From the NCBI GenBank assembly GCA_051955835.1, contig JBQCGH010000120.1, positions 7,019-71,018 on the forward strand: 64,000 bases of DNA, given 5' to 3'. This document shows positions 19,725 to 40,226 of the stretch, one piece after another. The position numbers were made by a program, and so were the translations under genes. This stretch comes from Gemmatimonadales bacterium. Lineage in GTDB: Bacteria; Gemmatimonadota; Gemmatimonadetes; Gemmatimonadales; GWC2-71-9. Each line of letters opens with the position of its first letter. Positions within the stretch are counted from its first letter, which is position 1. Under the pieces are notes generated by a model, which saw nothing but the letters and a program-made list of their open reading frames with translations, searched no databases and had not been told where the DNA came from.

Positions 19725-19739
19725 GGAACGAGAACGACC

Positions 19740-20959: not shown

Positions 20960-22432
20960 GTGGACACCAGCATCGTGAACGTGGCGATCCCGCACATGAT
21001 GGGCAATCTGGGCGCCACCCTCGACGAGGTGGCCTGGGTGAGCACGGGATACATCGTCGCGAACGTCATCGTCCTGCCGCTCACGAGCTGGCTGTCGGAC
21101 CGCTTCGGCCGGCGCAACTACTACACGGGATCCATCCTCCTCTTCACCCTGGCATCGTTCTGCTGCGGCGCCGCGCGGTCGCTCGAGGGCCTGGTGCTCT
21201 GGCGCATCGTGCAGGGGATCGGCGGCGGCGCCCTCATCAGCACCGCGCAGGCCATCCTGTTCGATGTGTTTCCCCTCGCCGAGCGCGGCACCGCCATGTC
21301 CATCTTCGGCATGGGCGTCATGGTCGGGCCGACGCTCGGGCCGACGCTCGGCGGCTGGATCACCGACAACTACTCGTGGCCCTGGATCTTCTACATCAAC
21401 GTGCCACTCGGGCTGCTCGCGGCCGTGCTCACCTGGCGCTCGGTCCCCGAGCCGGCGCATCTGGTGCGGCGGACGCGGGTGGACTGGCTGGGGCTCGCCC
21501 TGCTGATCGTAGGAATCGGCGCCTTGCAGATTCTGCTCGAGCGCGGCGAGAGCAAGGACTGGTTCGAGTCGCGGGAGATCGTGACCGAGGCGATCGCGGC
21601 CGGCGTGGGGCTGATCGCCTTCGTATGGCACGAGCTCCGGACTGCGAACCCGATTGTGGAGCTGCGGATTCTCCGGAACCGGCAGCTCGCCGGCGGCGTG
21701 GGATTCGCGGTGGTGCTGGGCTTCGCGCTCTACGCCAGCGTCTTCGCGCTGCCCGTCTTTCTCCAGAATCTCCTGGGCTACAGCGCGTGGGACACCGGCC
21801 GGGTGATCCTGCCCGGCGCGATTGCCAGCGCGTTCACGATGGCGCTCATGGGCCGGCTGAGCGCGCGCCTCGACGCGCGACTCCTGGTGACGATCGGGGT
21901 GCTGCTGTTCTTCTGGTCCATGTGGCTGCACTTCCACTTCACGACCGACATCGGCATGTCGGACCTGCTGCTGCCGATGGTGCTGCGCGGCGTGGGGCTG
22001 GGCTTCATCTTCGTGCCGCTCACCGGCGCCGCGGTGGCCGACCTCCGGCCCGACCAGCTCGCGCAGGGGACGGGGCTGTTCAACCTCTCGCGCCAGCTCG
22101 GCGGCAGCTTCGGGATCGCGGTCACGGCCACGCTGCTGACGCGGTTCACCGAGCAGAGCCGCGAGGCGCTGTTGCCACACCTGGCCGCCGGCACCCCGGC
22201 TGCGACGAGCTGGCTGGAGCAGGCAACCCGGCGCATGGTGACCCTCGGCTCGGCGGTGCCCGAGGCGCAGCATCGGGCTCAGGCCCTGCTCGACGCGGTG
22301 TTGCGCCAGCAGGCGTCGATGGTGGCGTTCGAGAAGGTGTTTCTGACGATGGGAATCGCCTTCGTGGCCGCATTGCCGCTGCTGGTGCTGTTCCGGACCG
22401 GGCGGGTGCGGGGAGGCGCGGCGGCTCATTAG
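20960..22432 (+). CDS. DHA2-family MFS efflux pump (EmrB-like). The N-terminal ~35 codons lie in another frame (20851-20958), giving an apparent frameshift.
   Basis: 'DTSIVNVAIPHMMGNLG', 'WLSDRFGRR', 14-TM profile. The upstream frame reads 'RYLIAFAVTLASVLA', the missing first half of TM1. Confidence 0.85.
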   Translation: MDTSIVNVAIPHMMGNLGATLDEVAWVSTGYIVANVIVLPLTSWLSDRFGRRNYYTGSILLFTLASFCCGAARSLEGLVLWRIVQGIGGGALISTAQAILFDVFPLAERGTAMSIFGMGVMVGPTLGPTLGGWITDNYSWPWIFYINVPLGLLAAVLTWRSVPEPAHLVRRTRVDWLGLALLIVGIGALQILLERGESKDWFESREIVTEAIAAGVGLIAFVWHELRTANPIVELRILRNRQLAGGVGFAVVLGFALYASVFALPVFLQNLLGYSAWDTGRVILPGAIASAFTMALMGRLSARLDARLLVTIGVLLFFWSMWLHFHFTTDIGMSDLLLPMVLRGVGLGFIFVPLTGAAVADLRPDQLAQGTGLFNLSRQLGGSFGIAVTATLLTRFTEQSREALLPHLAAGTPAATSWLEQATRRMVTLGSAVPEAQHRAQALLDAVLRQQASMVAFEKVFLTMGIAFVAALPLLVLFRTGRVRGGAAAH

Positions 22433-22636
22433 GCGAGCAGGCGAGCGGCGGGCGGGGCGGCCATGGCTGGCGGTCACACGGCGAGGCATCCTGCCCGGGT
22501 AGTCCGAGCCACGTCCCCCCGTATCCCTCCCGGCGCTCGGGATGCACAACATCGGCTCGCTGTCGCCAGCTTCCCCGCCCTTCACTACGTCCTCCCTCCC
22601 CGCTTGTCGCCGGCCCTCTTACCGCCTCCTTCCGGC
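22433..22636. repeat. second long copy (opposite orientation) of the GC-rich inverted-repeat element
   Basis: It starts 1 nt after the emrB-like TAG. 'gcgagcaggcgagcggcgggcgggg' is at one end, and the reverse complement of the other end reads 'gaggcggtaagagggccggcga'. Compare 7571-7600 'gaggcgggggcgtaagaggcgggcgggcga'. Shared internal 'gggagggat'. Confidence 0.55.
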
Positions 22637-22654
22637 TGCCCGTATGTTTCGTTC

Positions 22655-24124
22655 GTGACCTTCCAGAGCAAGCTGCTGTTCGGTTTCTCGCTGATGGTCC
22701 TGCCTGCCCTCCTCGTGGGGGCGGAAGCCATCCGCAGCAACGCGCTCGAGCGGCGCGCGCTCACGGCGCTGGGTCAGAGCATGGCGAGGACCCGGACGTA
22801 CGCCGAGCTCGAAACGGCAATGTTCGACCAGAACGAGCTGGTCTGGCGCTATCTGAGCGGCCTCGACGAGACGGCGCGGAAGGAATTCGTGCTTACCGGC
22901 CAGGTCGTCGACTATTGGCAGAACCGCTGGCGCGCGGAGCTGCACCCGGACGAGATGGGCATGGCTGACGGCGTGGCTGCCATTCAGCGCCAAATTGTGG
23001 CCGTGTCGGACAGCGTCTTCCACCTGGCCGACGAGGGCCACCGGGTCGAGGCCTACCGCCTGGCGCAGCGCGAGCTCAAGGGGCGACTTCAACCCGCCCT
23101 CACCGCCACCAACCGCGAGATCTATCGGCGCGCCCGGGAGTCGAGCGTGAAGGGCGCCTACGGCAGGCTGGAGGACATCCTGGCGGCCGAGGGACGGACG
23201 CTGGTGGCCATCATCGTGCTCGCGCTTGCGGCGGGACTCATGGCGAGCTGGCTCATTTCACGGAGTCTCGCCCGTCCCGTGGCCGATCTCACCCGCGCCA
23301 TGGCCGTAGTGGGCTCGGGCGACCTCGACCATCCGGTCCATGCGACGTCGCGCGATGAGATCGGCGATCTGGCGCGCGCCCTGGAGCGCATGACCGGGCA
23401 GCTGCGCGAGTCGCGCGAGCAACTGGTGCAGGCTGGAAAGCTCGCCTCGATCGGAGAGATGTCGGCGGCGGTGGCGCACGGGCTCCGGAACCCGCTGGCG
23501 AGCCTCCGGGCCGCCGCGCAGCTCGTGCGGCGCCATCCCGGGTCGCCGTCCGCGACGGAGCACCTCGACGCCATCATCGAGGAGGTGGACCGGCTGGATC
23601 GGCGGATCAGCCATCTGCTCAGCTTCAGCCGGCCCGCCCCGTTTCATCCGGTGAGCGAGAGCGTACCGCGGTTGATTGACGAACTGCTGCCGGCCGTGGC
23701 CCAGCCGATCCGCGAGCAGCGCGTGGAGCTGGAGAAGGCCGTGCCGCCGTCACTGCCCCAGGTCCGGGTGGACCCGATGCAGATCGAGCAGGCGATCCTC
23801 GAGATCGTCTCCAACGCCCTCGACGCGATGCCGGGCGGCGGCCGGCTCCGGATCAACGCCTTCGTGGCCGATGGCACCGGACCCGGCTCGCCCACGCCGG
23901 CCTCGGTTGTGGTCGAGGTGAGCGACACCGGTGGCGGGATCCCCGAGCACGCGCTCGCGTCCGTGTGCGAGCCGTTCTTCACCACGCGGCAGGAGGGCAC
24001 GGGGCTGGGCCTGGCGATCGCCAAGCGGTACATCGAGCAGAACGGTGGCCGGCTCGAGATCGCGTCCAGCCCGGGCCTGGGCACGACCGTGCGGGTGCGG
24101 CTGCCGACGGAGCAGGCGGCGTGA
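22655..24124 (+). CDS. sensor histidine kinase (2 TM, HAMP, HisKA, HATPase)
   Basis: GTG at 22655. H-box 'AAVAHGLRNPL', N-box 'EIVSNALDA', G-boxes 'DTGGGIP' and 'GTGLGLAI'. Confidence 0.85.
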   Translation: MTFQSKLLFGFSLMVLPALLVGAEAIRSNALERRALTALGQSMARTRTYAELETAMFDQNELVWRYLSGLDETARKEFVLTGQVVDYWQNRWRAELHPDEMGMADGVAAIQRQIVAVSDSVFHLADEGHRVEAYRLAQRELKGRLQPALTATNREIYRRARESSVKGAYGRLEDILAAEGRTLVAIIVLALAAGLMASWLISRSLARPVADLTRAMAVVGSGDLDHPVHATSRDEIGDLARALERMTGQLRESREQLVQAGKLASIGEMSAAVAHGLRNPLASLRAAAQLVRRHPGSPSATEHLDAIIEEVDRLDRRISHLLSFSRPAPFHPVSESVPRLIDELLPAVAQPIREQRVELEKAVPPSLPQVRVDPMQIEQAILEIVSNALDAMPGGGRLRINAFVADGTGPGSPTPASVVVEVSDTGGGIPEHALASVCEPFFTTRQEGTGLGLAIAKRYIEQNGGRLEIASSPGLGTTVRVRLPTEQAA

Positions 24125-25581
24125 CCGGCTCGACGGTGCTCATCGTGGACGATGAGCGCACCCTCGCCCGCGCGATCAAGGCGTTCCTCACCGAATCCGG
24201 CTACGAGGCCGAAGTGGCGGTCGACGCGGAGCAGGCGCTCCGGCTGCTCGAGACGATGCGGCCGGACGTGGTGTTCAGCGACGTGCGGCTGCCGGGCATG
24301 GACGGGATCGAGCTGCTGCGCCGGATCCGCGAGTTCGACGCGGCCATCCCCGTCATCATCATGACGGCGCACGGCACGATCGAGGGCGCGGTGGAGGCGG
24401 TGAAGCTCGGGGCCTTCGACTACCTCAAGAAGCCGGTGGATCTCGAGGAGCTCAGACTTCTCGCGGACCGAGCCCGCGAGAACTCGCAGCTTCGTCAGGA
24501 GCTCTCGTACTACCGGCGCCGGGATGCGGTCCGCGATGCGACCCTCGCAGGTGTGATCGGCGACTCGCCCGCGATTCGAGCGCTCCTGGACCAGGCCCGG
24601 CAGATCGCAACGCTGGATGAGACGCCGCCGGTGCTCATCACCGGCGAGACCGGGACCGGGAAGGGGCTGGTGGCCCGGACGATCCATGCGGCGAGCTCGC
24701 GTGCCGCGCGGCCCTTCATCGAGGTCAACTGCACCGCTCTTCCGGCGACGCTGATGGAAGCGGAGCTGTTCGGCCACGAGCGCGGCGCGTTCACCGACGC
24801 CAAGGAATCGCGAATGGGTCTGTTCGAGGCGGCCGAAGGTGGGTTCCTGTTTCTCGACGAAGTGGGCGACGTCGAGCTGTCGCTCCAGGGGAAGCTGCTC
24901 AAGGCGGTGGAGGAGCGAACGGTCCGCCGGGTCGGCGGCATCCGCGACCGACGGATCGACGTCCGCATCCTGGCCGCCACCAACCGCGATCTCGAGCGCG
25001 ACGCCCAGCGCGACCAGTTCCGCCGCGACCTCTACTTCCGGCTGGCGGTGATCATCCTGCACCTGCCCCCGCTGCGGGAGCGTGGGAGCGACGTGCTGCT
25101 CCTCGCGCAGCACTATCTCGATCGATTCAACGCCAAGTACGACAAGCAGGTGCGGCATATCGACCCGCGCGCCCGGGAGTTGCTCCTGACTTATCCCTGG
25201 CCGGGCAACGTGCGAGAGCTGAGCCACGTGATCGAACGCGCGGTTCTGTGGAGTCGAGGCGCGACGCTGGATGTCGAGCACCTTTCGCTGGCAACCCCGG
25301 AAACCCGGGAAAGCGTGCCGGCGTCGCCGATCTCCACTTCAGTGCCGGCCGAAGCGGGCGTACCGAATGCGTCCGATCAGCTCCCGGCCGTCCACGGGCC
25401 GCCTGGAACCAATGGGCCCTCGCTCCCGCCTCCGGGGATGGACCTCGACGGCTGGGAGCGCTCCATGATTGAGCAGGCGCTGCGGGAGTGCGAAGGAAAT
25501 CAGACCCGGGCGGCGCAGCGTCTGGGCATCAGCCGCGACACGCTTCGCTACCGGCTCAAGAAGTACGGATTGAGTGGGTGA
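24121..25581 (+). CDS. sigma-54-dependent response regulator (NtrC family: REC, AAA+, Fis HTH)
   Basis: GTGA overlap with the kinase gene. 'VLIVDDE...SDVRLPGMDG', Walker A 'GETGTGKG', GAFTGA-like 'ERGAFTDA', 'PWPGNVREL', and C-terminal 'AAQRLGISRDTLRYRLKKYGL'. Confidence 0.92.
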   Translation: MTGSTVLIVDDERTLARAIKAFLTESGYEAEVAVDAEQALRLLETMRPDVVFSDVRLPGMDGIELLRRIREFDAAIPVIIMTAHGTIEGAVEAVKLGAFDYLKKPVDLEELRLLADRARENSQLRQELSYYRRRDAVRDATLAGVIGDSPAIRALLDQARQIATLDETPPVLITGETGTGKGLVARTIHAASSRAARPFIEVNCTALPATLMEAELFGHERGAFTDAKESRMGLFEAAEGGFLFLDEVGDVELSLQGKLLKAVEERTVRRVGGIRDRRIDVRILAATNRDLERDAQRDQFRRDLYFRLAVIILHLPPLRERGSDVLLLAQHYLDRFNAKYDKQVRHIDPRARELLLTYPWPGNVRELSHVIERAVLWSRGATLDVEHLSLATPETRESVPASPISTSVPAEAGVPNASDQLPAVHGPPGTNGPSLPPPGMDLDGWERSMIEQALRECEGNQTRAAQRLGISRDTLRYRLKKYGLSG

Positions 25582-25709: not shown

Positions 25710-25726
25710 CGGCACGGAGTCTGCAT
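25710..25726 (+). promoter_or_regulatory. sigma-54 (-24/-12) promoter candidate for pqqA
   Basis: cGGCACGgagtcTGCAt against the consensus TGGCACG-N4-TTGCW. GG (25711-12) and GC (25723-24) have the correct 12-nt register. It lies about 100 nt upstream of the pqqA ATG and directly downstream of a sigma-54 activator gene. Confidence 0.6.
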
Positions 25727-25828: not shown

Positions 25829-25903
25829 ATGAAGTGGACCAAGCCCGAGGCCGAGGTCGTTGCCGTCACGATGGAAGTCACCGCGTACGTCGCGACGCTC
25901 TAA
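25829..25903 (+). CDS. pqqA: PQQ precursor peptide PqqA (24 aa)
   Basis: MKWTKPEAEVVAVTMEVTAYVATL contains the conserved Glu-x3-Tyr (EVTAY). AGGAGG lies 8 nt upstream. It is followed by pqqBCDE. Confidence 0.85.
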   Translation: MKWTKPEAEVVAVTMEVTAYVATL

Positions 25904-25919
25904 GGCGAACAGCTGATCC

Positions 25920-25953
25920 GAGGGGCTCGCGAAAGCGGGCCCCTCGATCTTTT
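25920..25953 (+). terminator. pqqA-pqqB intergenic hairpin with GAAA tetraloop and T-tract (attenuator or partial terminator)
   Basis: gaggggctcgc-GAAA-gcgggcccctc (11 bp including one G-U pair) followed by gatcttttc. Confidence 0.6.
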
Positions 25954-25969: not shown

Positions 25970-26878
25970 GTGCACATCGTTCTTCTGGGCACCGCCGCCG
26001 GCGGAGGCTTCCCCCAATGGAACTGCTGGTGCCCGACATGCCGCGTCGCCCGAAGCGCGCCGGACCAGGCACGTCCGCGCACCCAGTCGTCCGCCGCGGT
26101 GAGCGCGGACGGCGCCCGCTGGTTCCTGCTCAACGCCTCGCCCGATGTGCGCGAACAGCTGGGGACGCTCGGGCTGCCGGCGCCCACCGGCGTCCGGCAC
26201 GTGCCGGTCGAGGGCGTCGTCTTCACCGACGCCGAGCTGGACCATACGCTCGGTCTGGCCCTGCTCAGGGAGGCGCGACACCTTCAGGTGTGGGCCACCG
26301 ACGCGGTGCGGGACGTGATCGCGCATGATTCGCGGATCCTGCCGGTCACGCAGGCATTCGCCGAGGTTCGGGTCGAGGCGATGGTGCTCGAGCGGCGCAC
26401 CGGCCTCTGCTATCACGACGGGAGCTCCAGCAGCCTCCGGGTGACCTGTTTTCCGGTGCCCGCGGGACCGCCCCGGTTCGCGAGCGAAGAGCGGCCGGGC
26501 CACACGGTCGGCCTCATCGTGCAGGACGAGCGCACGGGAGGGTCTTGCGCCTTCGTTCCTGGCTGCGGCGGGCTCGACGACGAGCTGCTCCGCCGCCTCG
26601 AAACGGTGAACCTCGTGCTGTTCGACGGCACGTTCTGGACGGACGACGAGCTGATCGGCCTTGGCATCGGCGAGCGCACCGCCCGTCAGATGGATCATCT
26701 GCCGGTATCCGGCGCGGACGGAAGCCTGGCACGTCTGGCCGGCCTTGTCGGTCGGCGGCGGGTCTACACGCACATCAACAACACCAATCCCATGCTGCTC
26801 GAGCACGGTCCGGAGCGGGCCGACGTCGAGCGGGCCGGCCTGATCGTCGGCGCCGACGGCATGCGGTTTACCCTGTGA
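25970..26878 (+). CDS. pqqB: PQQ biosynthesis protein PqqB (metallo-beta-lactamase fold)
   Basis: 'IVLLGTAAGGGFPQWNCWCPTC' is the characteristic PqqB N-terminus. GTG start. Confidence 0.9.
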   Translation: MHIVLLGTAAGGGFPQWNCWCPTCRVARSAPDQARPRTQSSAAVSADGARWFLLNASPDVREQLGTLGLPAPTGVRHVPVEGVVFTDAELDHTLGLALLREARHLQVWATDAVRDVIAHDSRILPVTQAFAEVRVEAMVLERRTGLCYHDGSSSSLRVTCFPVPAGPPRFASEERPGHTVGLIVQDERTGGSCAFVPGCGGLDDELLRRLETVNLVLFDGTFWTDDELIGLGIGERTARQMDHLPVSGADGSLARLAGLVGRRRVYTHINNTNPMLLEHGPERADVERAGLIVGADGMRFTL

Positions 26879-26883
26879 CGATC

Positions 26884-27642
26884 ATGACCACGACCTTCGC
26901 CGCCTCGCAGCTCGCCTCACCGCCACGGCCGCCCATCCCCCCGCTCGAGCGTCCGCTGAGTCCTACGGAGCTCGAGGCGGCGCTCCGAACATTTCATGGG
27001 TCGTATTACGTGCAGCACCCGTTTCACCAGCGCATGTACGAGGGGAAGCTGACGCAGCGGCAGTTTCAGGGTTGGGCCGCGAACCGGCTCGCGTACCAGC
27101 GTGTGGTGCCGCGAAAGGACGCGGCCATCCTCTCCAACTGTCCCGACCCGGACGTGCGCCGGGAGTGGATCCAGCGCATCATCGACCACGACGGCACAGC
27201 GCCGCGCACGGGTGGGATCGAGATGTGGATCCGGCTCGGCATGGCCCTTGGCGTTCCGCGCGAGGAGATGGAGGACGAGCGGCACGTGCTGCCCGCGGTG
27301 CGGCTGATCTGCGAGTCGTACGTCACGTTCTGCCGGACCAAGCCCTGGCAGGAGGCGTGCGCCTCCTCGCTGACCGAGCTGTTCGCCCCCAAGATCCACC
27401 AGCAGCGCATCGAAGCGTTTCCGACCCACTATCCGTGGATTCCGCCTGAGGCGCTGGACTACTTCCGGAGCCGGCTGGTGCAGGCGCCGCGGGACGTGAG
27501 CCACGGACTGCGGATCGTGCGCGAGTGGGCCACGACGCCGGAACGGCAGCGCAAGGTGTTCGAGGCGCTGGCGTTCAAGCTCGAGATGCTGTGGGCGATG
27601 ATCGACACGATCCACAATGCGTACCGCGAGGACGTCGCGTGA
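26884..27642 (+). CDS. pqqC: pyrroloquinoline-quinone synthase PqqC
   Basis: 'HPFHQRMYEGKLTQRQFQGWAANRLAYQ' and 'YFRSRLVQAPRDV' are typical of PqqC. ATG at 26884. Confidence 0.9.
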   Translation: MTTTFAASQLASPPRPPIPPLERPLSPTELEAALRTFHGSYYVQHPFHQRMYEGKLTQRQFQGWAANRLAYQRVVPRKDAAILSNCPDPDVRREWIQRIIDHDGTAPRTGGIEMWIRLGMALGVPREEMEDERHVLPAVRLICESYVTFCRTKPWQEACASSLTELFAPKIHQQRIEAFPTHYPWIPPEALDYFRSRLVQAPRDVSHGLRIVREWATTPERQRKVFEALAFKLEMLWAMIDTIHNAYREDVA

Positions 27643-27902
27643 CGCTCGCGCCCGACGCGGTCCCTCGACTCTGGCGACTGGCCCGCTTGGACTACGACCC
27701 GGCGCGCGACCGCCCCGTCCTGCTGTACCCCGAAGGCGCCGTCCTGCTCAACGACACCGGCAAGGCCATCCTGGAGCTGGTGAACGGGAGCCGCACCGTG
27801 GCCGAGATCGCCGCCACGCTGAGTGAACGCTACCAGACCGACGTGACCGCCGATGTGACCGAGTATCTGTCGCGGCTGGCGGAGAGAGAGCTGATCCAAT
27901 GA
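27639..27902 (+). CDS. pqqD: PQQ biosynthesis peptide chaperone PqqD
   Basis: GTGA overlap with pqqC. 'PVLLYPEGAVLLNDTGKAILELVNGSRTVAEI'. Confidence 0.85.
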   Translation: MTLAPDAVPRLWRLARLDYDPARDRPVLLYPEGAVLLNDTGKAILELVNGSRTVAEIAATLSERYQTDVTADVTEYLSRLAERELIQ

Positions 27903-28984
27903 CCACCCAGGAACGCCCGACGACCCTGCTCGCGGAGCTGACGCACCGCTGCCCGCTGCACTGCCCCTACTGCTCGAACCCGCTCGACCTGCTCCGGGCC
28001 GACACTGAGATCGGCACCGAGGACTGGAAGCGCGTCTTCACCCAGGCGCGCGAGCTCGGTGTGCTGCAGCTCGGGCTCTCCGGCGGGGAGCCGCTGGTGC
28101 GCAAGGATCTCGAGGAGCTGGCCGTGCATGCCCGGAGTCTCGGCCTGTACACCACCCTCGTAACCTCGGGCCTCGGTCTCACCCGCAAGCGCGCCGAGGC
28201 GCTGCGGGCCGCCGGGCTCGAGCACATCCAGGTGTCGGTGCAGGATGCCGATCCGGCCGTGGCGGAGCGGATCGCGGGGGTGAGCTCGGTAAAACAGAAG
28301 CAGGCGGCCGTATCATTGGTGAAGGAGCTCGGCTTCGCGTTCTCGATCAACGTCGTGCTGCACCGCGCCAATCTCGATCGGATCGGCGAGATCATCGACC
28401 TCGCCGCCGAATACGGCGCGGATCGGCTGGAGCTTGCGAACACCCAGTACTACGGCTGGGGCCTCAAGAATCGCGCATCGCTCATGCCGACGCGGCGACA
28501 GGTGCTCGAAGCCAAGGAGATCGCCCAGGAGCGGATCCAGCGCTACAAGGGGCAGATGCAGATCACGTTCGTGCTCCCGGACTACTTCGAGGAGCTGCCG
28601 AAGGCGTGCTACGGCGGCTGGGGCCGGTACTACATCGTGGTCTCGCCGGATGGGCGCGCGCTTCCCTGCCATGGCGCGTACGCGATCCCCTCGCTCGACC
28701 TTCCCAACGTGCGCGACCATTCGGTGGGCTGGATCTGGCACGAATCACCCGCCTTCCAGGCCTTTCGGGGGGACGCGTGGATGCGCGAGCCCTGCCGGAG
28801 CTGCCCGCGGAAAGGGGTGGATTTCGGCGGCTGCCGCTGCCAGGCGCTGGCGCTCACCGGTGACGCCGCCAACGCCGATCCGGTCTGCGCCCTGAGCCCG
28901 CACCGTCACGTGATCGACCAGGCTTTGCGCGAGCAGGCCGACGAGTACGTCTACCGCGATTACGTCGAGCCGCAGCGCGCGTGA
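27899..28984 (+). CDS. pqqE: radical SAM/SPASM enzyme PqqE
   Basis: ATGA overlap with pqqD. 'LLAELTHRCPLHCPYCSNP' (CX3CX2C) and a C-terminal SPASM cysteine cluster 'CRSCPRKGVDFGGCRCQA'. Confidence 0.92.
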   Translation: MTTQERPTTLLAELTHRCPLHCPYCSNPLDLLRADTEIGTEDWKRVFTQARELGVLQLGLSGGEPLVRKDLEELAVHARSLGLYTTLVTSGLGLTRKRAEALRAAGLEHIQVSVQDADPAVAERIAGVSSVKQKQAAVSLVKELGFAFSINVVLHRANLDRIGEIIDLAAEYGADRLELANTQYYGWGLKNRASLMPTRRQVLEAKEIAQERIQRYKGQMQITFVLPDYFEELPKACYGGWGRYYIVVSPDGRALPCHGAYAIPSLDLPNVRDHSVGWIWHESPAFQAFRGDAWMREPCRSCPRKGVDFGGCRCQALALTGDAANADPVCALSPHRHVIDQALREQADEYVYRDYVEPQRA

Positions 28985-29928
28985 GCCATTCGGCTGCGCC
29001 CGGGGCCGGCGCGACACCGGCGATTCTCACCGAAGGGCTCGGGCGCGACTATGGCGGCGTCCGGGCCCTCGACGCATTGACTCTCGAGGTCGCGCGGGGC
29101 TCGCTGGTCGGCCTCCTCGGCCCGAACGGCGCGGGCAAGACGACCGCGATGCTGCTGCTGGCCACGCTGCTCGCGCCCACCCGCGGAGGCGCCCGCGTGC
29201 TCGGGCACGACGTCGTACGGGATCGCGCGGCGGCGCGACGGCGGCTCGGGCTCGTGTTCCAGGAGACCAGCATCGACGGCCTGCTCACGGTCGAGCAGAA
29301 CCTGCGGTTCGCCGCCCGTCTCGCGGGGTTGGGTGGCCGGGAGCTTTCGGCGGCGGTCGCCGCGGCGATGGAGCGCGCGGGCCTCGGCCCACGTGCGGCA
29401 CAGGCGGCGAGCCGCCTTTCCGGCGGTTGGCGCCGCCTGGTCGACGTCGCCCGCGCGACCCTTGCGGGCCCCGAGCTGCTCATTCTGGACGAGCCGACGG
29501 TCGGCCTCGATCCCGAGCACCGCGAGCTGATCTGGAGGCTGCTTGCCGCGGAGCGGCGGGAGCGTGGTACGACCGTCCTGTTCTCCACGCATTATCTCGC
29601 GGAGGCCGAGCCGGCCGACCGAGTCGTGCTGCTCTCGCGCGGGCGGGTCGTGGCGGACGATGCGCCCCGCGCCTTGCGCGCCGCGGTGGGAGCCGAAGTC
29701 GCCGAGATCGAAGGTCCAGGCGCCGAGCGCCTGGCGAGAGCGGTGCGCGGACTCGGCGCCGCGGCTACGGTGCTCCGAACGGAGCGAGGGTACCGCTTGG
29801 GCATCAGCGGCGAGCGGGAAGCGGTGATCGAACTGGCCACGGCCGCGACCGGCATCGAGCGGCTCGCGCTCCGGCCGCCGACCCTCGAGGACGTGTACTT
29901 CGCGCGGACCGTCGGGAGCGAGGCGTGA
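28981..29928 (+). CDS. ABC transporter ATP-binding protein (ABC-2/DrrA-like)
   Basis: GTGA overlap with the pqqE stop. Walker A 'GPNGAGKTT', signature 'LSGGWRR', Walker B 'LLILDEP'. Confidence 0.9.
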   Translation: MSHSAAPGAGATPAILTEGLGRDYGGVRALDALTLEVARGSLVGLLGPNGAGKTTAMLLLATLLAPTRGGARVLGHDVVRDRAAARRRLGLVFQETSIDGLLTVEQNLRFAARLAGLGGRELSAAVAAAMERAGLGPRAAQAASRLSGGWRRLVDVARATLAGPELLILDEPTVGLDPEHRELIWRLLAAERRERGTTVLFSTHYLAEAEPADRVVLLSRGRVVADDAPRALRAAVGAEVAEIEGPGAERLARAVRGLGAAATVLRTERGYRLGISGEREAVIELATAATGIERLALRPPTLEDVYFARTVGSEA

Positions 29929-30746
29929 GCGCCTGGCACGCGGTCATCGGCATCGTCGCGCGCGATCTGACACGGGCAACGCGTCAGACGAGCCGCCTGC
30001 TGGGCGGTCTCGCCCGGCCGTTCATGTGGCTTATCCTGGTGGGCACCGGTTACAACGCCATCGCGCGGATCGACAACGGGCTGCCCTATCAGGCCTATGT
30101 GTTCCCCGGGGTCGTGGTGATGGCGGCGTTGTTCGGCGGGATGCTGACGGGCATCTCCACCGTGTACGACCGGGAGTTCGGCATGCTGCGCCTCATGCTC
30201 GCGAGTCCGGCCGGCTCGGCCGCCGTGCTGGCCGGCCGGGCGATCGCCGCGATGCTGGTGGGCGCGCTGCAAGGCGCGGTGGTGCTGGTGGTCGCGCCGC
30301 TCGTGGTGGACGCGGCCCCGGCGCGCTACCTGGCGGCGGCCGCGGCGCTTCTCGTCGTCGCGGCGATGAGCGCGACGTTGGGGCTGATGGTTGCCGCCCG
30401 GCTCCGGTCGGTCGAGAACTTCGCGGGAATCATCAACGTGGTCCTCTTTCCGCTCCTGTTCCTGAGCGGAGCGCTGTACCCCACGCGGGGCATGCCGCCG
30501 GCATTCCGGGCGGTGGCTCGAATCAACCCGGTGAGCTACGCCGTAGACCTCGTGCGCCACGCGCTGGGACAGCCGGCGGAGGCGTCGGCGCCGCTCGCGG
30601 CCGCCACCGTGATAGGAACGACCATCGCCGCATTCGTCATCGCCGTACTGGTGTTCGATCCGGAGCAGCGATTCGTGGGGCGCGCCAGACCGGCACGAAC
30701 GGACACGCCCAGGACCGATGCCTCGCCCGCGGGTGAGCCACGCTGA
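29925..30746 (+). CDS. ABC-2 type transporter permease
   Basis: GTGA overlap with the ATPase gene. Six hydrophobic segments and 'YDREFGMLRLMLASP', typical of ABC-2 permeases. Confidence 0.85.
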   Translation: MSAWHAVIGIVARDLTRATRQTSRLLGGLARPFMWLILVGTGYNAIARIDNGLPYQAYVFPGVVVMAALFGGMLTGISTVYDREFGMLRLMLASPAGSAAVLAGRAIAAMLVGALQGAVVLVVAPLVVDAAPARYLAAAAALLVVAAMSATLGLMVAARLRSVENFAGIINVVLFPLLFLSGALYPTRGMPPAFRAVARINPVSYAVDLVRHALGQPAEASAPLAAATVIGTTIAAFVIAVLVFDPEQRFVGRARPARTDTPRTDASPAGEPR

Positions 30747-30812: not shown

Positions 30813-31628
30813 TCATCGAGACTCGGGCTCAGCTGCACAGAATCGTCCGCTCCGCGTGAGCGCTGCGTCCTGCTCCAGCCGGGATCGGAGCGGCAGCTTG
30901 AGCGGACCACCGGCAGGCACCGACGTCTCGACCACGATGTGACGCACCCGCCGCACCAGGCCCGACCTCGCGTCCCAGTCTATCTCACCCGTTTCGGTGG
31001 TCACCTGGCTCACCGTGAGTCCGGTCATGTCGCCTCGAATCGCAGCTTCGTTCGATTGCGATCGATCATGCAAGGCGAGCCTCCACAGTGACCGACCGTG
31101 GGCCACGCTGTCGGGCAGCCGGCGCAGCTCGAGGCCCGCGCCGTCGCTCCACGCATCACCGACCGTCAGCGCGCGGGGCGGGAGCGGTGGCAGGAGATCA
31201 TCCAGGACGCGGCCGAGATCGGCGACCTCCGCAACGGCGTCGGGCACAAATGGCCGTGCGCGAGGCTCGTAGCGGCCCTCGGCCGACAGCGCACCGCGGT
31301 AGCGGCCTCCCAGCAGGCCGTCGGTGTCCGGGATGAGGGTGGTCTCGGGACTCACGCGCGAGACGGCGAGCGAATCGTACCAGGCCTCGAGGGCGATGCC
31401 CGAATCGGCGGCGCGAGCGCGGACACGGAGCACGCCGTCGCGGGAAAGCGTCTCGCGCCGGCGGCGGGCGCCGGTTTCGGCGTCGAGCCGTCCGGCCGCG
31501 TGATCCACGAAGGTGGCGCAGTCGAGCTGCGCCGCGGTGTATCGGAGTGAAGCAGGCGGACCTGCCGCGTACACGCCCACGCCAGCGACGAGCCACACGA
31601 GCAGCGCCGGGCGCCGCGCGCGGGTCAC
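30813..31628 (-). CDS. hypothetical secreted protein
   Basis: N-terminal signal-like 'ALLVWLVAGVGVYAA'. 13-nt gap after the upstream pruA-like gene. No family recognised. Confidence 0.5.
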   Translation of the reverse strand: MTRARRPALLVWLVAGVGVYAAGPPASLRYTAAQLDCATFVDHAAGRLDAETGARRRRETLSRDGVLRVRARAADSGIALEAWYDSLAVSRVSPETTLIPDTDGLLGGRYRGALSAEGRYEPRARPFVPDAVAEVADLGRVLDDLLPPLPPRALTVGDAWSDGAGLELRRLPDSVAHGRSLWRLALHDRSQSNEAAIRGDMTGLTVSQVTTETGEIDWDARSGLVRRVRHIVVETSVPAGGPLKLPLRSRLEQDAALTRSGRFCAAEPESR

Positions 31629-31641
31629 GGCGCCGATCAGA

Positions 31642-33270
31642 TCACGCCTCCGTCATGAACGGGTAGCGGTAGTCGTGGGCCGGCGCGAGCGTCTCCTTGA
31701 CGCTCCGGGGAGAGACCCAGCGCAGCAAGTTGAGCACCGAGCCCGCCTTGTCGTTCGTGCCGCTGGCCCGCGCACCGCCGAAGGGCTGCTGCCCGACCAC
31801 CGCGCCGGTCGGCTTGTCGTTCACGTAGTAGTTGCCGGCGGCCTGACGCAGCACCCCGTCGGCCTCCGCCAGCGCCGCGCGGTCGCGCGCGAACACGGCG
31901 CCCGTGAGCGCGTAGGGGCCGGTGCGGTCCACCAGCTCGAGCGTCTCGCGCCACCGCGCGGCCGGATAGACATAGGTGGTGAGCACCGGGCCGAAAATCT
32001 CCTCGCGCATCGTGCGATAGCCGGGGTCCTCGACCTGAAGCAGTGTGGGCTGCACGAAGTAGCCGACGCTGTCGTCGGTCCCGCCGCCCGCCACGACGCG
32101 GACGCCGGGCGCTGTGCGGGCGGTGGCGAGATGGTCGCGGATGCGGGCGAAGGCGCGGTGATCGATGACGGCGCCCATGAAGTTGCGGAAATCGGCGACG
32201 TCGCCCATCCGGATGTCCTCGATCATCGCGACGACCCGGTCGCGTACCGCGGGCCACAGGGTGTCGGGGATATACGCCCGGGACGCCGCGCTGCATTTCT
32301 GACCCTGGTACTCGTATGCGCCACGAACGAGCGCGACGGCCAGCGCGTCGATGTCGGCGCTCGGGTGCGCGACGACGAAGTCCTTCCCGCCGGTCTCACC
32401 CACGATGCGCGGGTAGCTGCGATAGCGGTCGAGGTTCTCCCCGATCTCCTTCCACAGACTCCTGAACACGGTCGTCGAGCCGGTGAAGTGGATGCCCGCA
32501 AAGTGGGGGCTCGAGAGGAGCGTGCGGCTGACCGCGATCGGATCGCCCGGGAGGAAATTGATTACACCCGGCGGCAGCCCGGCCTCTTCGAGCAGCTTGT
32601 AGAAGTGCCAGTTGCTGAGCGCGGCCGTGTGCGCCGGCTTCCACACGACCGTATTCCCCATGAGCGCCGGTGCGGTGGGCAGGTTGCCGCCGATGGCGGT
32701 GAAGTTGAATGGCGTGATAGCGTACACGAAGCCTTCGAGCGGACGATGGTCCATCCGGTTCCATGCGCCGGCTGCCGACTGCGGCTGCTCCTGGTAGATG
32801 CGCTCGGCGAAGTGCACGTTGAAGCGGAGGAAGTCGATCAGCTCGCACGCGCTGTCGATCTCCGCCTGAAACGCGGTCTTGCTCTGGCCGAGCATGGTGG
32901 CCGCGTTGAGCCGCTGCCGGTGCACGCCGGCGAGCAGATCGGCCGCCTTGAGGAAGACCGCCGCGCGGTCCTCGAATCGCCAATGCGCCCAATCCTGCTG
33001 CGCCTCGACCGCCGCGGTGACCGCCGAGTCCATGGTGGCCTGGTCGGCCTGGTGAAGCGTGGCGAGGACCCGGGCGTGGCAATGCGGCGACAGGACGTTC
33101 TGCGTGGCGCCGCTCCGAAACTCGCGGCCGCCCACGACCGCCGGGATGTCGGGCCGCTCAGCACCCACGACGCCGAGGGCGCCTTTGAGCGCCGTGCGCT
33201 CGGCGGTCCCCGGGGCGTAGCTCAGGACTGGTTCGTTGTGAGGCTGGGGGATGTTCGGGGCACCGCTCAT
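31642..33270 (-). CDS. pruA: L-glutamate gamma-semialdehyde (1-pyrroline-5-carboxylate) dehydrogenase
   Basis: Aldehyde dehydrogenase signatures 'VGETGGKDF' and catalytic Cys 'YQGQKCSAASR'. 542 aa, with 'MSGAPNIPQPHNEPVLSYAPG' typical of single-domain P5CDH. The ATG at 33270 was chosen over the long shadow extension. Confidence 0.88.
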   Translation of the reverse strand: MSGAPNIPQPHNEPVLSYAPGTAERTALKGALGVVGAERPDIPAVVGGREFRSGATQNVLSPHCHARVLATLHQADQATMDSAVTAAVEAQQDWAHWRFEDRAAVFLKAADLLAGVHRQRLNAATMLGQSKTAFQAEIDSACELIDFLRFNVHFAERIYQEQPQSAAGAWNRMDHRPLEGFVYAITPFNFTAIGGNLPTAPALMGNTVVWKPAHTAALSNWHFYKLLEEAGLPPGVINFLPGDPIAVSRTLLSSPHFAGIHFTGSTTVFRSLWKEIGENLDRYRSYPRIVGETGGKDFVVAHPSADIDALAVALVRGAYEYQGQKCSAASRAYIPDTLWPAVRDRVVAMIEDIRMGDVADFRNFMGAVIDHRAFARIRDHLATARTAPGVRVVAGGGTDDSVGYFVQPTLLQVEDPGYRTMREEIFGPVLTTYVYPAARWRETLELVDRTGPYALTGAVFARDRAALAEADGVLRQAAGNYYVNDKPTGAVVGQQPFGGARASGTNDKAGSVLNLLRWVSPRSVKETLAPAHDYRYPFMTEA

Positions 33271-33343
33271 CGGAACGTCCGGGCTCGGGGAGGGAAGGAA
33301 AATAACCGGGGCAGGATGCCGATGGGCGACCCGCTGGAGGTCG

Positions 33344-34099
33344 CTAGAACGACGCCTGCCAGCCCAGCCCCGCGCCTTGTGGGCCCGCGATGAAGGATGG
33401 GGGATGCAGACGGAAAATCCGCCACCGGCCGGACGCGAGCTTGGCCGAGGTGATGCCGACGAGCGCGCCGGCGGCCACGTCGGTGAACCAGTGGCGGTTG
33501 TCGTTGATGCGGGACCAGCCGACCGCCGTCGACAGGCCATACAGACCCACGGCCGCCACTGGATTGTGGATGGCGTCAGCGAGCGAGGTGGCCAAGGCAA
33601 AGGCGGCGGCCGTATGCCCCGAGGGCATCGAGACCTGGCCCGAGAACGGTTCATAGCCGTCCGCGTCCAGGCTCTGCTCGGGACGCGGACGCCCCACGGC
33701 GACCTTGCCTACCTCGGTGGCGGCCCCGGCCAGGGCCATCGCCAGGGCCAGCCGGCCGCCGCTTCGGGTAATGTCGGGCCGCCCGGCGATCAGCCCAGTA
33801 GCGAGCATGCCGAGCGTCACGGTGACGTAGGCCTCTGGCTGCCCGAAATGACGGACCACCGAGGCGACGTTGTCGGCACCGGTGCCGCTGTTATGCCGAG
33901 CGTATCGTTGCACGGGATGGTCCAGCACCATCAGCGTCGAGAGCGCCCCGGCGACGGCCGCCCCATGCCACCAGCGAAGGACGTGCGGCGCAGGCGTCTC
34001 GATCGTGGCACGCGACTCGGAGAGGGAGTCGAGCCCCTGCGCCGCGACCCAGGCGGGACTGCCGAGCAGGACGAGCGACAGCACCGCCGAACGCGACAT
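33344..34099 (-). CDS. PAP2 family phosphatase
   Basis: Signal peptide plus the three PAP2 motifs 'KVAVGRPRP', 'PSGH' and 'SRINDNRHWFTDV'. Confidence 0.85.
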   Translation of the reverse strand: MSRSAVLSLVLLGSPAWVAAQGLDSLSESRATIETPAPHVLRWWHGAAVAGALSTLMVLDHPVQRYARHNSGTGADNVASVVRHFGQPEAYVTVTLGMLATGLIAGRPDITRSGGRLALAMALAGAATEVGKVAVGRPRPEQSLDADGYEPFSGQVSMPSGHTAAAFALATSLADAIHNPVAAVGLYGLSTAVGWSRINDNRHWFTDVAAGALVGITSAKLASGRWRIFRLHPPSFIAGPQGAGLGWQASF

Positions 34100-34188: not shown

Positions 34189-34551
34189 ATGATCCGACGC
34201 TTGGGGCTGTGCCTTGCCGCCATCGCTCTCGTCTCGTGCCGGGACTATCACTACAAGACGGGCATGTCCGACCAGCATGGTCTCACTCCGCCCGACCAGT
34301 TCGCACGCTACGGACATGATCAGGCGGAGGCCATCGCGATCGGCCGTGAGTTCGGCCGCACGGGTCGTGCCGACTCCGCCGCCGCGTATGCCAAGTCGCT
34401 CGGAGACGTCGAGGATGTAGTGACGGACACGCAGAGCTTCCGGTTGACGGTGCGGTTCAAGAGCGGCTGGCGGACGGGTATTCCCCCCATCAACGACGGC
34501 AAGCGCGGAAGCGATACGCCCGGCGTGGGCAAGGCGCAGCCCAAGTCCTAG
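34189..34551 (+). CDS. hypothetical lipoprotein
   Basis: Lipobox 'IALVSC' after a short basic N-terminus. Confidence 0.55.
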   Translation: MIRRLGLCLAAIALVSCRDYHYKTGMSDQHGLTPPDQFARYGHDQAEAIAIGREFGRTGRADSAAAYAKSLGDVEDVVTDTQSFRLTVRFKSGWRTGIPPINDGKRGSDTPGVGKAQPKS

Positions 34552-34565: not shown

Positions 34566-34898
34566 GTGACGGCGCCGGACCGACCCGAGTGCTGGCAGGT
34601 CACCACCACCCTGCCCGACCGCCCCAGCGCCGACCGTATTGCCGCCGTGCTGGTCGAGGAGCGCTGGGCCGCCTGTGCCCAGGTCGTCGGGCCGATCGAG
34701 AGCACCTACCGCTGGCGCGGGGACGTGGCGCACGCGACCGAGTGGTACTGCCACCTCAAGACCTCTGCCGCGCGCGCGGCCGGGCTTCGCGACCGCCTCC
34801 GGGCGCTCCACCCCTACGAGATTCCCGAGATCATCGCCGTCCCGATCGTGGACGGCGACCCTGCCTACCTCCGCTGGGTGGAGGATTCGGTCGGCTAG
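34566..34898 (+). CDS. cutA: divalent-cation tolerance protein CutA
   Basis: 'CAQVVGPIESTYRWRGDV...LHPYEIPEII' is typical of CutA1. Confidence 0.85.
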   Translation: MTAPDRPECWQVTTTLPDRPSADRIAAVLVEERWAACAQVVGPIESTYRWRGDVAHATEWYCHLKTSAARAAGLRDRLRALHPYEIPEIIAVPIVDGDPAYLRWVEDSVG

Positions 34899-35920
34899 GC
34901 TCGGCTCGGCCGGACCTCGGCCAGCAGGGTCGCGATCGCGTCCAACGGCAGTACATGGCCCGCGCCGCCGCGCTGAATCGCCGCGCGCGGCATCCCATAT
35001 ACCACGCAGCTCGACTCGCTCTCGGCGATCGTGGTGCCGCCTCCGGCGCGAATCGCCGTCATCCCGTCCGCCCCATCTTCACCCATCCCCGTGAGCAGGA
35101 TGCCGAGCACCTTGCCGGGCCGAGCGCGCGCCGCCGAGCGCATCGTGACGTCGACGCTGGGGATGTGCTTGGCATCGGCCGGCTCGGGGGTGAGGATCGC
35201 CACCAGGTTGGGCGACACCCGGAGATGCGAGCCCGCCGGAGCGATCACCGCGGTGCCGGCCGCGAGGCGCATGCCGTCCTCGCCCTCAGCCACCTGCACG
35301 CGGCTGAGCGAGGCGAGCCGCTGCGCAAACGGCCGGGTGAATCCCGCCGGCATGTGCTGCACCACGACGACCGGCATCGGGAAGTGAGCGGGCAGCGTCT
35401 GGAGGATGCGTTGCACGGCGGCGGGGCCGCCGGTTGACGCGCCGATGACGCAGAGCTCGGCCCGCGAGAAATCCGGCCCGGGGGACGCCGGTCGGAGCCC
35501 GGCCGCGGGGTGCGTGGCGCGCTGCCCGGCCGGTGCGACAGCACGCATGCGGTCCACCACCTCGCGCCGGAGGTACTCGAGGTCCATCACATTGAAGGTG
35601 GTCTTGTCGATGAAGTCCACCGCGCCGGCGGCCAGCGCCGCGACGGTGGCCTCGGTGCCGTCACGGGTATGGGCCGAGATCATCAGCACCTTGAGTGACG
35701 GCTTCCATCGGAGCAGCGCGGGCAGCAGCTGCAACCCGTCCATCCCCGGCATCGCGACGTCGAGCGTGACGAGATCGGGGTCGGCCTCGGTGATTCGGGC
35801 GAGGGCCTCGCCGCCGCTCGCCGCCTCGCCGACGACCTGGAACTCGGGCTCGACCGCCAGCACGCGGGTGAGCGCGCGGCGAACGAAGGCCGAGTCGTCC
35901 ACGAGGAAGACGCGGATCAC
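34895..35920 (-). CDS. cheB: chemotaxis response regulator protein-glutamate methylesterase CheB
   Basis: The GTG at 35920 overlaps the cheR stop (GTGA). REC 'VFLVDDS...LDVAMPGMDG', then 'IGASTGGP', 'VVVQHMP' and 'GMGEDG'. Confidence 0.9.
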   Translation of the reverse strand: MIRVFLVDDSAFVRRALTRVLAVEPEFQVVGEAASGGEALARITEADPDLVTLDVAMPGMDGLQLLPALLRWKPSLKVLMISAHTRDGTEATVAALAAGAVDFIDKTTFNVMDLEYLRREVVDRMRAVAPAGQRATHPAAGLRPASPGPDFSRAELCVIGASTGGPAAVQRILQTLPAHFPMPVVVVQHMPAGFTRPFAQRLASLSRVQVAEGEDGMRLAAGTAVIAPAGSHLRVSPNLVAILTPEPADAKHIPSVDVTMRSAARARPGKVLGILLTGMGEDGADGMTAIRAGGGTTIAESESSCVVYGMPRAAIQRGGAGHVLPLDAIATLLAEVRPSRA

Positions 35921-36747
35921 GCGGCCGCCTTCCGGTAGACGACGGCGCCGCTTACCATCGCGGGTGCGAACGCGGTCTTGCGGTCGAGCAGGGACTCGGA
36001 GTGACCGAGGAACAGGTAGCCCCCGGGCAGCAGCGACCGGGCGAACAGCGCGATGAGGCTGGCGAACGCCTCCTCGCTCACATAAATGAGGAGGTTGCGG
36101 CAGAGAATGGCGTCGTACACCGACCAACCGAGACTGCCGTTCGGCGCGACCAGGTTGGCCTGAAAGCAGCGCACGCCCTGGCGGTACTTCTCACGGAGGC
36201 GGAAGCCGTCGGGCTCCTGGACGAAGTAGCGGCGGCGGGCGTCGGCGTCACAGGCTCGAAGCGAGCTTTCCGCGTACAGGGCGGCCTGCGCTCGGGCGAT
36301 GCGCTCGGGGTTGAGATCGCACGCGTCGATCTCCCAGGTGATGCCGGTCAGCGCGAGCCCCGCGTTGTGCAGCGCGATCGACAGCGAATACGGCTCCTCC
36401 CCCGAGGAACACCCGGCGGAGAGGATCCGGAGGGGCCGGCCGCGCAGCACACTGCGGCGCTGGGGAATGACATACTGGAGCAGCATGTCGAACTGGTGGG
36501 TCTCGCGAAAGAAGTAGGTCTCGTTGTTCGTGACCATGGCGGGCAGGCGCGCGAGCTCGCTGTCGCGCTCGGGGTGGAAGCGGAGATATTGGTAGTAGTC
36601 GCGGACGCTGGTGAGATGCAGCTCCCGGAGCCGCGGTCGGAGCTTGGACTCCAGGATCTCGAGCCGAATGCCCTGGAAGGTCAGGCCGAACCGCTCCTCG
36701 ATCAGATCGGTCAGGAGCTTGAGCTCGGCCTGCTCGAACCCGGTCAC
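35917..36747 (-). CDS. cheR: chemotaxis protein methyltransferase CheR
   Basis: 'NETYFFRE', 'RILSAGCSSGEEPYS', 'DAILCRNLLIY'. Confidence 0.9.
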   Translation of the reverse strand: MTGFEQAELKLLTDLIEERFGLTFQGIRLEILESKLRPRLRELHLTSVRDYYQYLRFHPERDSELARLPAMVTNNETYFFRETHQFDMLLQYVIPQRRSVLRGRPLRILSAGCSSGEEPYSLSIALHNAGLALTGITWEIDACDLNPERIARAQAALYAESSLRACDADARRRYFVQEPDGFRLREKYRQGVRCFQANLVAPNGSLGWSVYDAILCRNLLIYVSEEAFASLIALFARSLLPGGYLFLGHSESLLDRKTAFAPAMVSGAVVYRKAAA

Positions 36748-38723: not shown

Positions 38724-38730
38724 CGGCGCC

Positions 38731-40206: not shown

Positions 40207-40226
40207 CGGTCCACCCGTGGTGAGAG

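Follow-up and report, generated by a model that had tools for sequence, protein, structure and literature searches.

Synthesis of pyrroloquinoline quinone (PQQ) takes place in the cytoplasm, but the cofactor is put to use in the periplasm, and no defined exporter for it is named in reviews. Uptake of PQQ, by PqqU and PqqT, is known in structural detail, whereas its passage across the cytoplasmic membrane is an acknowledged gap. The sole explicit PQQ-exporter candidate in the literature searched was META1p2359 of Methylorubrum extorquens AM1, which was proposed for its lack of a binding protein and because neither XoxF- nor MxaF-based growth on methanol is possible without it. Another described system that bears on the present locus is PedA1A2BC, known as a 'lanthanide transporter' and poorly understood. 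In Pseudomonas putida, deletion of pedA1A2BC raised the La3+ needed for PedH-dependent growth by ~100-fold; lanthanide import was the authors' inference from growth phenotypes and not from transport assays. The locus compared here with these systems lies in a 64-kb stretch of DNA from a Gemmatimonadales bacterium (contig JBQCGH010000120.1), referred to as the window over its whole length of 64,000 nucleotides. It consists of an ATP-binding cassette (ABC) ATPase gene and an ABC-2 permease gene at the end of a pqqABCDE cluster. An earlier note on this DNA had proposed the pair as a candidate exporter of PQQ or of a PQQ intermediate, and had claimed that no dedicated PQQ exporter has been assigned, which was borne out in the literature searched. 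No description of a fusion between pqqE and an ABC-2 transporter was found there either. Based on the analysis below, the pair is best described as a pqq-fused, uncurated variant of the PedBC-type ABC-2 family, and export of PQQ or a late intermediate is its most likely single function, at a probability of about 0.4.

To define the unit to which the pair belongs, the five genes upstream of it were compared with curated NCBIfam models. The products of pqqB (25970–26878; TIGR02108, 351 bits against a cutoff of 245), pqqC (26884–27642; TIGR02111, 311 bits against 240), pqqD (27639–27902; TIGR03859, 81 bits against 46) and pqqE, which encodes the radical-SAM/SPASM enzyme (27899–28984; TIGR02109, 529 bits against 381), each exceeded their equivalog cutoff. 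The first gene, pqqA (25829–25903), encodes a precursor peptide of 24 aa with the ORF translation MKWTKPEAEVVAVTMEVTAYVATL, which contains the E-x-x-x-Y motif as E-V-T-A-Y. By tblastn, this peptide was 82–100% identical across the loci of the closest Gemmatimonadales relatives, termed clade 1 below, and 69–82% identical in three Acidobacteriota loci. The ATPase gene (28981–29928) and the permease gene (29925–30746) follow directly, with all seven genes on the forward strand.

Four-nucleotide start/stop overlaps had been claimed for every junction from pqqC onward, and reading of the sequence confirmed each of them: GTGA at 27639–27642 (pqqC stop and pqqD start), ATGA at 27899–27902 (pqqD/pqqE), GTGA at 28981–28984 (pqqE/ATPase) and GTGA at 29925–29928 (ATPase/permease). 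Other overlaps of this kind occur in the same window of this 70% GC genome, at 24121–24124, 34189–34192 and 36744–36747. They are common in the compact operons of this genome, so four consecutive ones are unremarkable by themselves. Judged across the related loci described below, it is the conservation of the transporter overlaps, not their mere presence, that exceeds chance. An internal promoter or terminator that would uncouple the pair, named in the earlier note as counting against it, was sought with a consensus scan; from pqqB through to the end of the permease gene, neither a sigma-70-type promoter nor an intrinsic terminator was predicted. The sole terminator-like hairpin on the operon strand was located just 3' of pqqA, at 25919–25946, and consists of a GC-rich stem of 12 pairs with a T-run behind it. 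The hairpin probably acts as an attenuator or partial terminator and so sets the ratio of pqqA to pqqB–E transcript. The genes 3' of the permease are convergent, and the operon therefore ends with the permease. Together, the overlaps and the scan support the view that the transporter pair is part of the same tightly coupled unit as pqqABCDE, and we infer that it is co-transcribed with the pqq genes.

The ATPase (315 aa; Pfam ABC_tran), whose GTG start overlaps the pqqE stop, is DrrA/PedB-like and has intact Walker A, signature, Walker B and H-loop motifs. Its best NCBIfam matches were DrrA, with 229 bits (cutoff 312), followed by PQQ_ABC_ATP, TIGR03864, with 208 bits (cutoff 302). The nearest PDB sequences were nucleotide-binding domains (NBDs) of the ABCA family, with Rv1218c and NosF lower in the list. 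The permease (273 aa; Pfam ABC2_membrane), of the ABC-2 or type V class, likewise begins at a GTG that overlaps the preceding stop, and best matched PedC, TIGR03861, with 171 bits (cutoff 241), and DrrB, with 154 bits (cutoff 223). Both Pfam matches were above the gathering scores. All of these NCBIfam scores were below the curated cutoffs, indicating that the pqq-linked proteins are an uncurated family. The possibility that TIGR03864 and TIGR03861 already cover pqq-linked pairs was rejected, since five other such pairs also fell below the cutoffs.

An AlphaFold2 model of the permease (pLDDT 87.5, pTM 0.85) showed an N-terminal interfacial helix, six long transmembrane (TM) helices and short helices between TM5 and TM6. 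When this model was searched with Foldseek, the best match was KpsM, with TM-scores of 0.68/0.72, and further matches were ABCH-9C, ABCG25 (an exporter of abscisic acid, an organic acid), ABCG5/8, ABCG2, NosY and TarG. The features of a type V (ABC-2) exporter were thus all present: a separate NBD, an ABC2_membrane permease alongside it, the six-helix fold and no cognate binding protein. With regard to the last of these, tblastn found no PedA1- or PqqT-type binding protein anywhere in the window, and a Peripla_BP_2 gene at 62460–63347 lies 32 kb off in another cluster. The same was true of ~100 pqq-linked loci, in which no PedA1 or PedA2 homologue, and no binding protein or propeller, was found within 10 kb. 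The type V fold and the lack of a binding protein support the pair, as modelled, being an exporter, or at least a module unlike a classical importer. The direction of transport and, above all, the substrate are inferred.

The claim that the window contains no quinoprotein dehydrogenase gene also held, based on Pfam analysis of the large open reading frames and tblastn of the whole window with XoxF; the same searches, with PedA1, PedA2 and PqqT as further tblastn queries, revealed no homologue of these proteins.

To establish whether orthologues stay adjacent to pqqE in related genomes, as the earlier note had suggested checking, an exhaustive search of 1.84 billion representative proteins was combined with a scan of GTDB at one genome per species. 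In the protein search, the permease fell in a tight clade (clade 1) of full-length relatives at least 58% identical to it, followed by a gap down to identities of 44% or less. Close relatives of the permease carried the name Gemmatimonadales. The genome scan found a relative in 143 species, and the junctions were analysed in the best 80 of these. pqqE was directly 5' of the pair in all 72 loci with enough upstream sequence, which are those of Gemmatimonadales and three Acidobacteriota; the other eight end at contig boundaries upstream. Of 70 loci, 65 retained the pqqE/ATPase overlap, and 67 of 78 retained the one between ATPase and permease, compared to just 39 of 65 for pqqC/pqqD, while the gap between pqqB and pqqC was variable. 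The two transporter junctions were therefore the best conserved in the operon. On three long contigs (L001, L003 and L005), the kinase gene and then the regulator gene stood ahead of pqqBCDE, the ATPase and the permease; a convergent hypothetical gene came next, followed by an aldehyde dehydrogenase.

The three Acidobacteriota loci (L035, L036 and L082; Vicinamibacteria), one of them on a contig of 911 kb, retained pqqABCDE-ATPase-permease, with a permease 62–67% identical to that of the window, and were without the kinase, regulator, hypothetical gene and aldehyde dehydrogenase of the Gemmatimonadales loci. As the module was kept despite different flanks, the seven genes travel as a unit. The identities of the module are typical of comparisons within Gemmatimonadales, which suggests transfer of the whole module between phyla. 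In one of the three (L035), a quinoprotein of the D-L-D type is encoded immediately 3' of the permease.

The nearest out-group was a second Gemmatimonadales clade, in which the pair is also fused to pqqE, the permease is 41–44% identical to that of the window and the ATPase is a short 250-aa form without the C-terminal domain. The order there (L088–L090) was pqqB, kinase, regulator, pqqA, pqqC, pqqD, pqqE, ATPase and permease, with pqqB upstream of the kinase and regulator genes. Besides these three loci, this second version was seen in L092, L100, L101, L104, L112, L118 and L141. When metagenomes were scanned with even more distant representatives as seeds, 80 loci were obtained, of which 48 were evaluable. 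pqqE was directly upstream in 31 of these, including three clade-1 orthologues (62–69% identical); two were linked to PedA1A2/XoxF and 15 had no pqq genes upstream. The pqq-linked permeases outside clade 1 were 31–45% identical to the window permease. Remote pqqE-fused relatives were found in Beta- and Gammaproteobacteria, and the protein clusters of pqq-linked distant relatives carried the names Methylophaga/Methylophagaceae, Pelomicrobium, Burkholderiales and marine Betaproteobacteria. Taken over the genomes and metagenomes scanned, the pqq-fused pair is found widely in Gemmatimonadales and also occurs in Acidobacteriota and methylotrophic Proteobacteria. In two pqq-linked loci (L130 and L140), the permease was found tandemly duplicated within a single polypeptide of 567 aa, which would make the membrane domain pseudo-heterodimeric.

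A bootstrapped neighbour-joining tree of the permeases placed 14 of the 15 unlinked sequences in one clade with 99% bootstrap. All 33 pqq-linked and all five Ped-type permeases were on the opposite side of this split, together with L111, the sole permease on the PQQ side with no pqq or ped genes on its contig, which is 9 kb long. Hence 38 of the 39 members on the PQQ side adjoin pqq or ped/xox genes, and no pqq or PedA2 genes were found in the examined sequence around the 14 members of the opposing clade. The unlinked relatives had heterogeneous neighbours, several of them adjoining MarR or PadR repressors or sensor kinases. Such neighbours are typical of efflux pumps. Based on these sequence comparisons, the window pair belongs to a PQQ-system-specific ABC-2 family that also holds the PedBC proteins of quinoprotein alcohol-dehydrogenase clusters.

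The conserved order could also have arisen if an unrelated multidrug-type efflux pump had become fixed at the operon end in an ancestor and then been inherited along. Part of the synteny does reflect vertical inheritance, because the kinase, the regulator, the hypothetical gene and the aldehyde dehydrogenase are conserved in Gemmatimonadales as well, and scores below every curated family cutoff would also be compatible with a pump of this kind. However, the association spans permease clades 31–45% identical, three phyla and differing operon layouts and flanks, the split between the PQQ side and the unlinked clade follows gene context almost without exception, and a separate member of the Ped clade, described below, is fused to pqqE too. 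This explanation is therefore very unlikely.

The best annotated matches on plasmids, 35–39% identical, were Ped-type pairs in XoxF/PQQ-dehydrogenase clusters that also encode PedA1 and PedA2, a YVTN propeller; examples were found in Sinorhizobium meliloti pSymB, Thioclava and Azospirillum. The company of PedA1, PedA2 and a PQQ-dehydrogenase was present in the Ped loci L006, L007, L152, L166 and L171, and in a hybrid locus of Variovorax boronicumulans (L172; plasmid NZ_CP138497, 35.9–42.9 kb). The Variovorax operon consists of genes for a sigma-54 regulator, pqqB, pqqC, pqqD, pqqE, the ATPase, PedA2, a PedA1-like binding protein and the permease. The ATPase gene overlaps pqqE and the permease is a true member of the Ped clade (100% bootstrap), showing that a different branch of the family also became fused to pqqE. 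As placed on the tree, the linkage to pqqE is deep and recurrent, and arose independently at least once.

In S. meliloti pSymB (L006, 8934–12792), the Ped pair is directly 3' of an importer that has a permease and an ATPase of its own, and is translationally coupled to it with overlaps of 4–8 nt. The binding protein of this importer is closely homologous to PqqT, whose crystallised form binds PQQ (PDB 9B1U, E 1.6e-60). A PqqT homologue also adjoins the Ped pair in L152 (7262–8203). PedA1 itself was considered as a PqqT homologue and rejected, as even at E = 10 it matched no sequence in the PDB; the PqqT homologue of S. meliloti is a different gene that neighbours PedA1.

The relationship to PedBC raises the possibility that the pair has a lanthanide-related role as proposed for PedA1A2BC, forming the membrane and ATPase core that makes XoxF/PedH-type lanthanide quinoproteins functional. 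By one route, Ln3+ or a Ln-chelate would be moved across the inner membrane. By another, ATP would drive periplasmic partners, such as a PedA2-type beta-propeller, in loading metal or cofactor, by analogy with NosFY. Either would explain co-expression with PQQ synthesis, because the same enzymes need both. The P. putida genetics are lanthanide-specific, and the window permease is on the same side of the 99% split as PedC. Residues common to the pqq-linked and Ped permeases and not found in the unlinked relatives were Q21, R31, W35, R89, N165, F175, Y185 and N201. The Variovorax operon joins pqqBCDE and the ATPase with PedA2, PedA1 and a true Ped-clade permease, NosY was among the structural matches, and published Gemmatimonadetes xoxF3 clusters include a PedA2-type propeller, with no ABC genes given in the figure legend. 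The hosts, which are XoxF-type organisms, and the D-x-D signature of adjacent quinoproteins also fit, as does the absence of the family from PQQ producers that use Ca only. Against such a role, the fold is that of an exporter and the out-group relatives are efflux pumps. An importer would need a binding protein, and the 64-kb window and the surrounding 10 kb of the ~100 pqq-linked loci contained neither this nor a propeller. In addition, the tightest and best-conserved linkage is to pqqE and not to xoxF, and the proposed import of lanthanides by PedA1A2BC goes back to growth phenotypes. A lanthanide-related role is the main alternative to PQQ export and, on this evidence, somewhat less probable.

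PQQ export is favoured because the coupling to pqqE is extremely tight and recurrent, because the fold is that of an exporter with no binding protein beside it, and because a biosynthetic cluster can be expected to export its product. The PqqT homologues next to Ped-type pairs, as neighbours that handle PQQ, also speak for it. Export genes are usually located inside the biosynthetic cluster of peptide-derived natural products. Several observations weigh on the other side. Deletion of pedA1A2BC left PQQ/Ca-dependent PedE growth of P. putida unchanged, so that the supply of periplasmic PQQ in that organism does not need PedA1A2BC. A 2026 review repeats the lanthanide role of PedA1A2BC and adds that Pseudomonas aeruginosa, which is without the lanthanide enzyme, is also without the system. 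Rahnella has a classical pqqABCDEF cluster without the transporter. Heterologous pqq clusters give active periplasmic glucose dehydrogenase in Escherichia coli. From the last three points, a dedicated pump is not generally required. Of five quinoproteins that adjoin pqq-linked pairs, three (in L110, L140 and L035) carried the D-x-D signature of the lanthanide type, and every host that could be identified looks like a user of such quinoproteins, a distribution that fits a lanthanide-linked role equally well. Finally, comparison of residues gave no clear anion-binding signature, such as clade-specific Arg-lined helices: no convincing Arg or Lys specific to the pqq-linked clades was found in the TM helices. 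R31 and W35, located in TM1, are also present in PedC, and the positive-inside rule may be enough to account for R31.

The candidacy of the pair as a PQQ exporter, as put forward in the earlier note, is thus partly supported: the coupling, the synteny, the exporter fold and the missing binding protein speak for it, and the Ped phenotype and the absence from classical producers against it. Sequence analysis alone cannot separate PQQ export from the lanthanide role. The two sets of observations could be reconciled if the pqq-fused pairs, and the whole PedBC family with them, were inner-membrane PQQ exporters. The lanthanide phenotype would then be downstream of PQQ delivery to lanthanide-type quinoproteins and not due to metal import, and PedA1 and PedA2 would be periplasmic PQQ acceptors or chaperones. 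This wider proposal is tentative and, as it stands, rather unlikely.

At this stage, a working model for PQQ export can be postulated in which the exporter forms the last part of an operon of seven genes, pqqA-B-C-D-E-ATPase-permease. Transcription would probably start from a sigma-54 promoter under the adjacent kinase and NtrC-type regulator. Through stop/start translational coupling from pqqC onward, the pump would be made in step with the last biosynthetic enzymes. It would be of the homodimer type, with two 315-aa ATPases and two six-helix permeases of 273 aa, and ATP binding and hydrolysis would drive the permease dimer back and forth between an inward-facing and an outward-facing state. 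Tri-anionic PQQ, or a late intermediate, would be carried from the cytoplasm to the periplasm, where apo-quinoproteins would pick up PQQ.

Upstream of pqqA, the forward strand encodes a sensor histidine kinase with the Pfam architecture HAMP-HisKA-HATPase_c (22463–24124) and a sigma-54-dependent NtrC-type response regulator (24121–25581; Pfam Response_reg, Sigma54_activat and HTH_8). The GTG start of the regulator overlaps the kinase stop by 4 nt, as GTGA at 24121–24124. A kinase was also upstream of pqq in L001, L003, L005 and most of L008–L087, and the regulator was conserved in related loci. A sigma-54-type promoter-like element, GGCACGGAGTCTGCA, was found on the same strand at 25711–25725, 118 nt upstream of pqqA. 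In 32 of 58 loci, the pattern GGYAYR-N4-YTGCW was present within the 320 nt that precede pqqA, mostly at a distance of 105–123 nt and in three loci at 78 nt. With just 35 matches on both strands of 2.54 Mb of locus sequence, the motif is highly specific. These patterns suggest that PQQ synthesis is here under sigma-54 and two-component control.

Downstream of the permease, a convergent gene pair occupies 30813–33654 on the reverse strand, with an aldehyde dehydrogenase (31642–33654) followed by a protein of 271 aa (30813–31628) that has an N-terminal hydrophobic segment and no Pfam match. Both were beside the permease in most Gemmatimonadales clade-1 loci and absent from the Acidobacteriota loci. 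The aldehyde dehydrogenase bears on a further explanation, export of another pathway-linked substrate, which would not be PQQ itself: either reactive intermediates or by-products of PQQ, for self-protection, or, as solvent efflux, the toxic alcohols and aldehydes that quinoprotein metabolism generates. An aldehyde dehydrogenase is also encoded near the Variovorax operon, the pair resembles DrrAB-like efflux systems and, in NCBIfam, the PedC model bears the name 'alcohol ABC transporter, permease protein'. However, the substrates and products of quinoproteins are periplasmic, so a pump from cytoplasm to periplasm would not help to remove them, and the strict coupling at the junction level is to pqqE and not to dehydrogenase genes. 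Export of such substrates is accordingly considered unlikely.

Further upstream, the window contains genes for TetR, an outer-membrane factor, an HlyD-type adaptor and a major facilitator superfamily (MFS) pump, resembling EmrAB-TolC tripartite efflux (17727–22432, directly upstream of the kinase). An M16 (insulinase-type) peptidase of 883 aa, from the protease family of PqqF/PqqG, is encoded on the reverse strand at 13829–16480, ~9 kb upstream of pqqA. Both were considered as parts of the unit and rejected, as they were not conserved beside pqq in L001, L003 and L005. A chemotaxis-type cluster on the reverse strand at 34895–42793 encodes CheB, CheR, a HEAT-repeat protein, a methyl-accepting chemotaxis protein (MCP) and CheA-CheW. 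The genes for CheB, CheR and the HEAT-repeat protein were also downstream of the pqq region in L001.

The pair offers a two-gene candidate for the missing step of PQQ passage to the periplasm, with a linkage to pqqE that is conserved at the nucleotide level across more than a hundred species of three phyla and recurs in cultivable methylotrophs (Methylophaga, Pelomicrobium and Variovorax). The pqq-linked pairs make up a sizeable uncurated family, which annotation pipelines label merely as 'ABC transporter'. If PQQ export is the function, the pump would be a useful part for engineering PQQ overproduction. The finding also ties PedA1A2BC to PQQ biosynthesis and may force a re-reading of the role of that system.

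Compared with the known systems, the label 'DrrAB/CcmAB-like' given to the pair in the earlier note proved loose, the real family being the PedBC group. The architecture and fold class are those of DrrAB, and the alignment of the ATPase spans the whole DrrA model, C-terminal domain included. The scores are nevertheless below the cutoffs of TIGR01188 (229 versus 312) and TIGR01247 (154 versus 223), and the window pair, which adjoins neither a repressor nor an antibiotic cluster, is split from the unlinked efflux-type relatives with 99% bootstrap. A CcmAB-like identity was rejected: no CcmB-type model was among the nine permease matches, and no CcmA model was among the 25 best of 182 families matched by the ATPase.

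META1p2359 resembles the pair in having been hypothesised to export PQQ, in its case on phenotype alone, and is likewise a candidate only. It differs, on a comparison by description only, in being a single polypeptide that fuses the ATPase and membrane domain instead of an ABC-2 pair, and its locus number (MexAM1_META1p2359) places the gene away from the pqq genes. The TonB-dependent PqqU and the PqqT-type ABC systems are also dedicated PQQ trafficking proteins, but they act in the uptake direction, belong to unrelated families and need an outer-membrane receptor or a binding protein. The S. meliloti PqqT homologue, used as a tblastn query, matched nothing in the window or in the pqq-linked loci, which separates the pair from PqqT-type importers. 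NosDFY(L) offers a precedent, as its ABC-2 module supports, via periplasmic partners, the loading of cofactor into N2O reductase, an enzyme of the periplasm. NosY was a structural match (TM ~0.57–0.64) and NosF a sequence match of the ATPase; however, identity is just 15–17% and no NosD- or NosL-like partner is present here, so that the analogy is mechanistic only.

The closest likeness is to PedBC. PedC is the best curated model for the permease, the PedB-type TIGR03864 is second for the ATPase after DrrA, and the window permease shares with PedC its side of the 99% split away from efflux-type relatives. Ped pairs, too, always had PQQ or quinoprotein genes around them. There are also differences. 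The window proteins are below both cutoffs (TIGR03864, 208 versus 302; TIGR03861, 171 versus 241). The Ped clade (99–100% bootstrap) excludes the window clade, the window permease being ~36% identical to PedC. In addition, the window and the 80 orthologous loci are without PedA1, PedA2 or a PQQ-dependent alcohol dehydrogenase set alongside the pair. By model cutoffs, by gene company and by placement in the tree, the pair is thus distinct from PedA1A2BC itself, and stands beside it as a pqq-fused variant within the same family.

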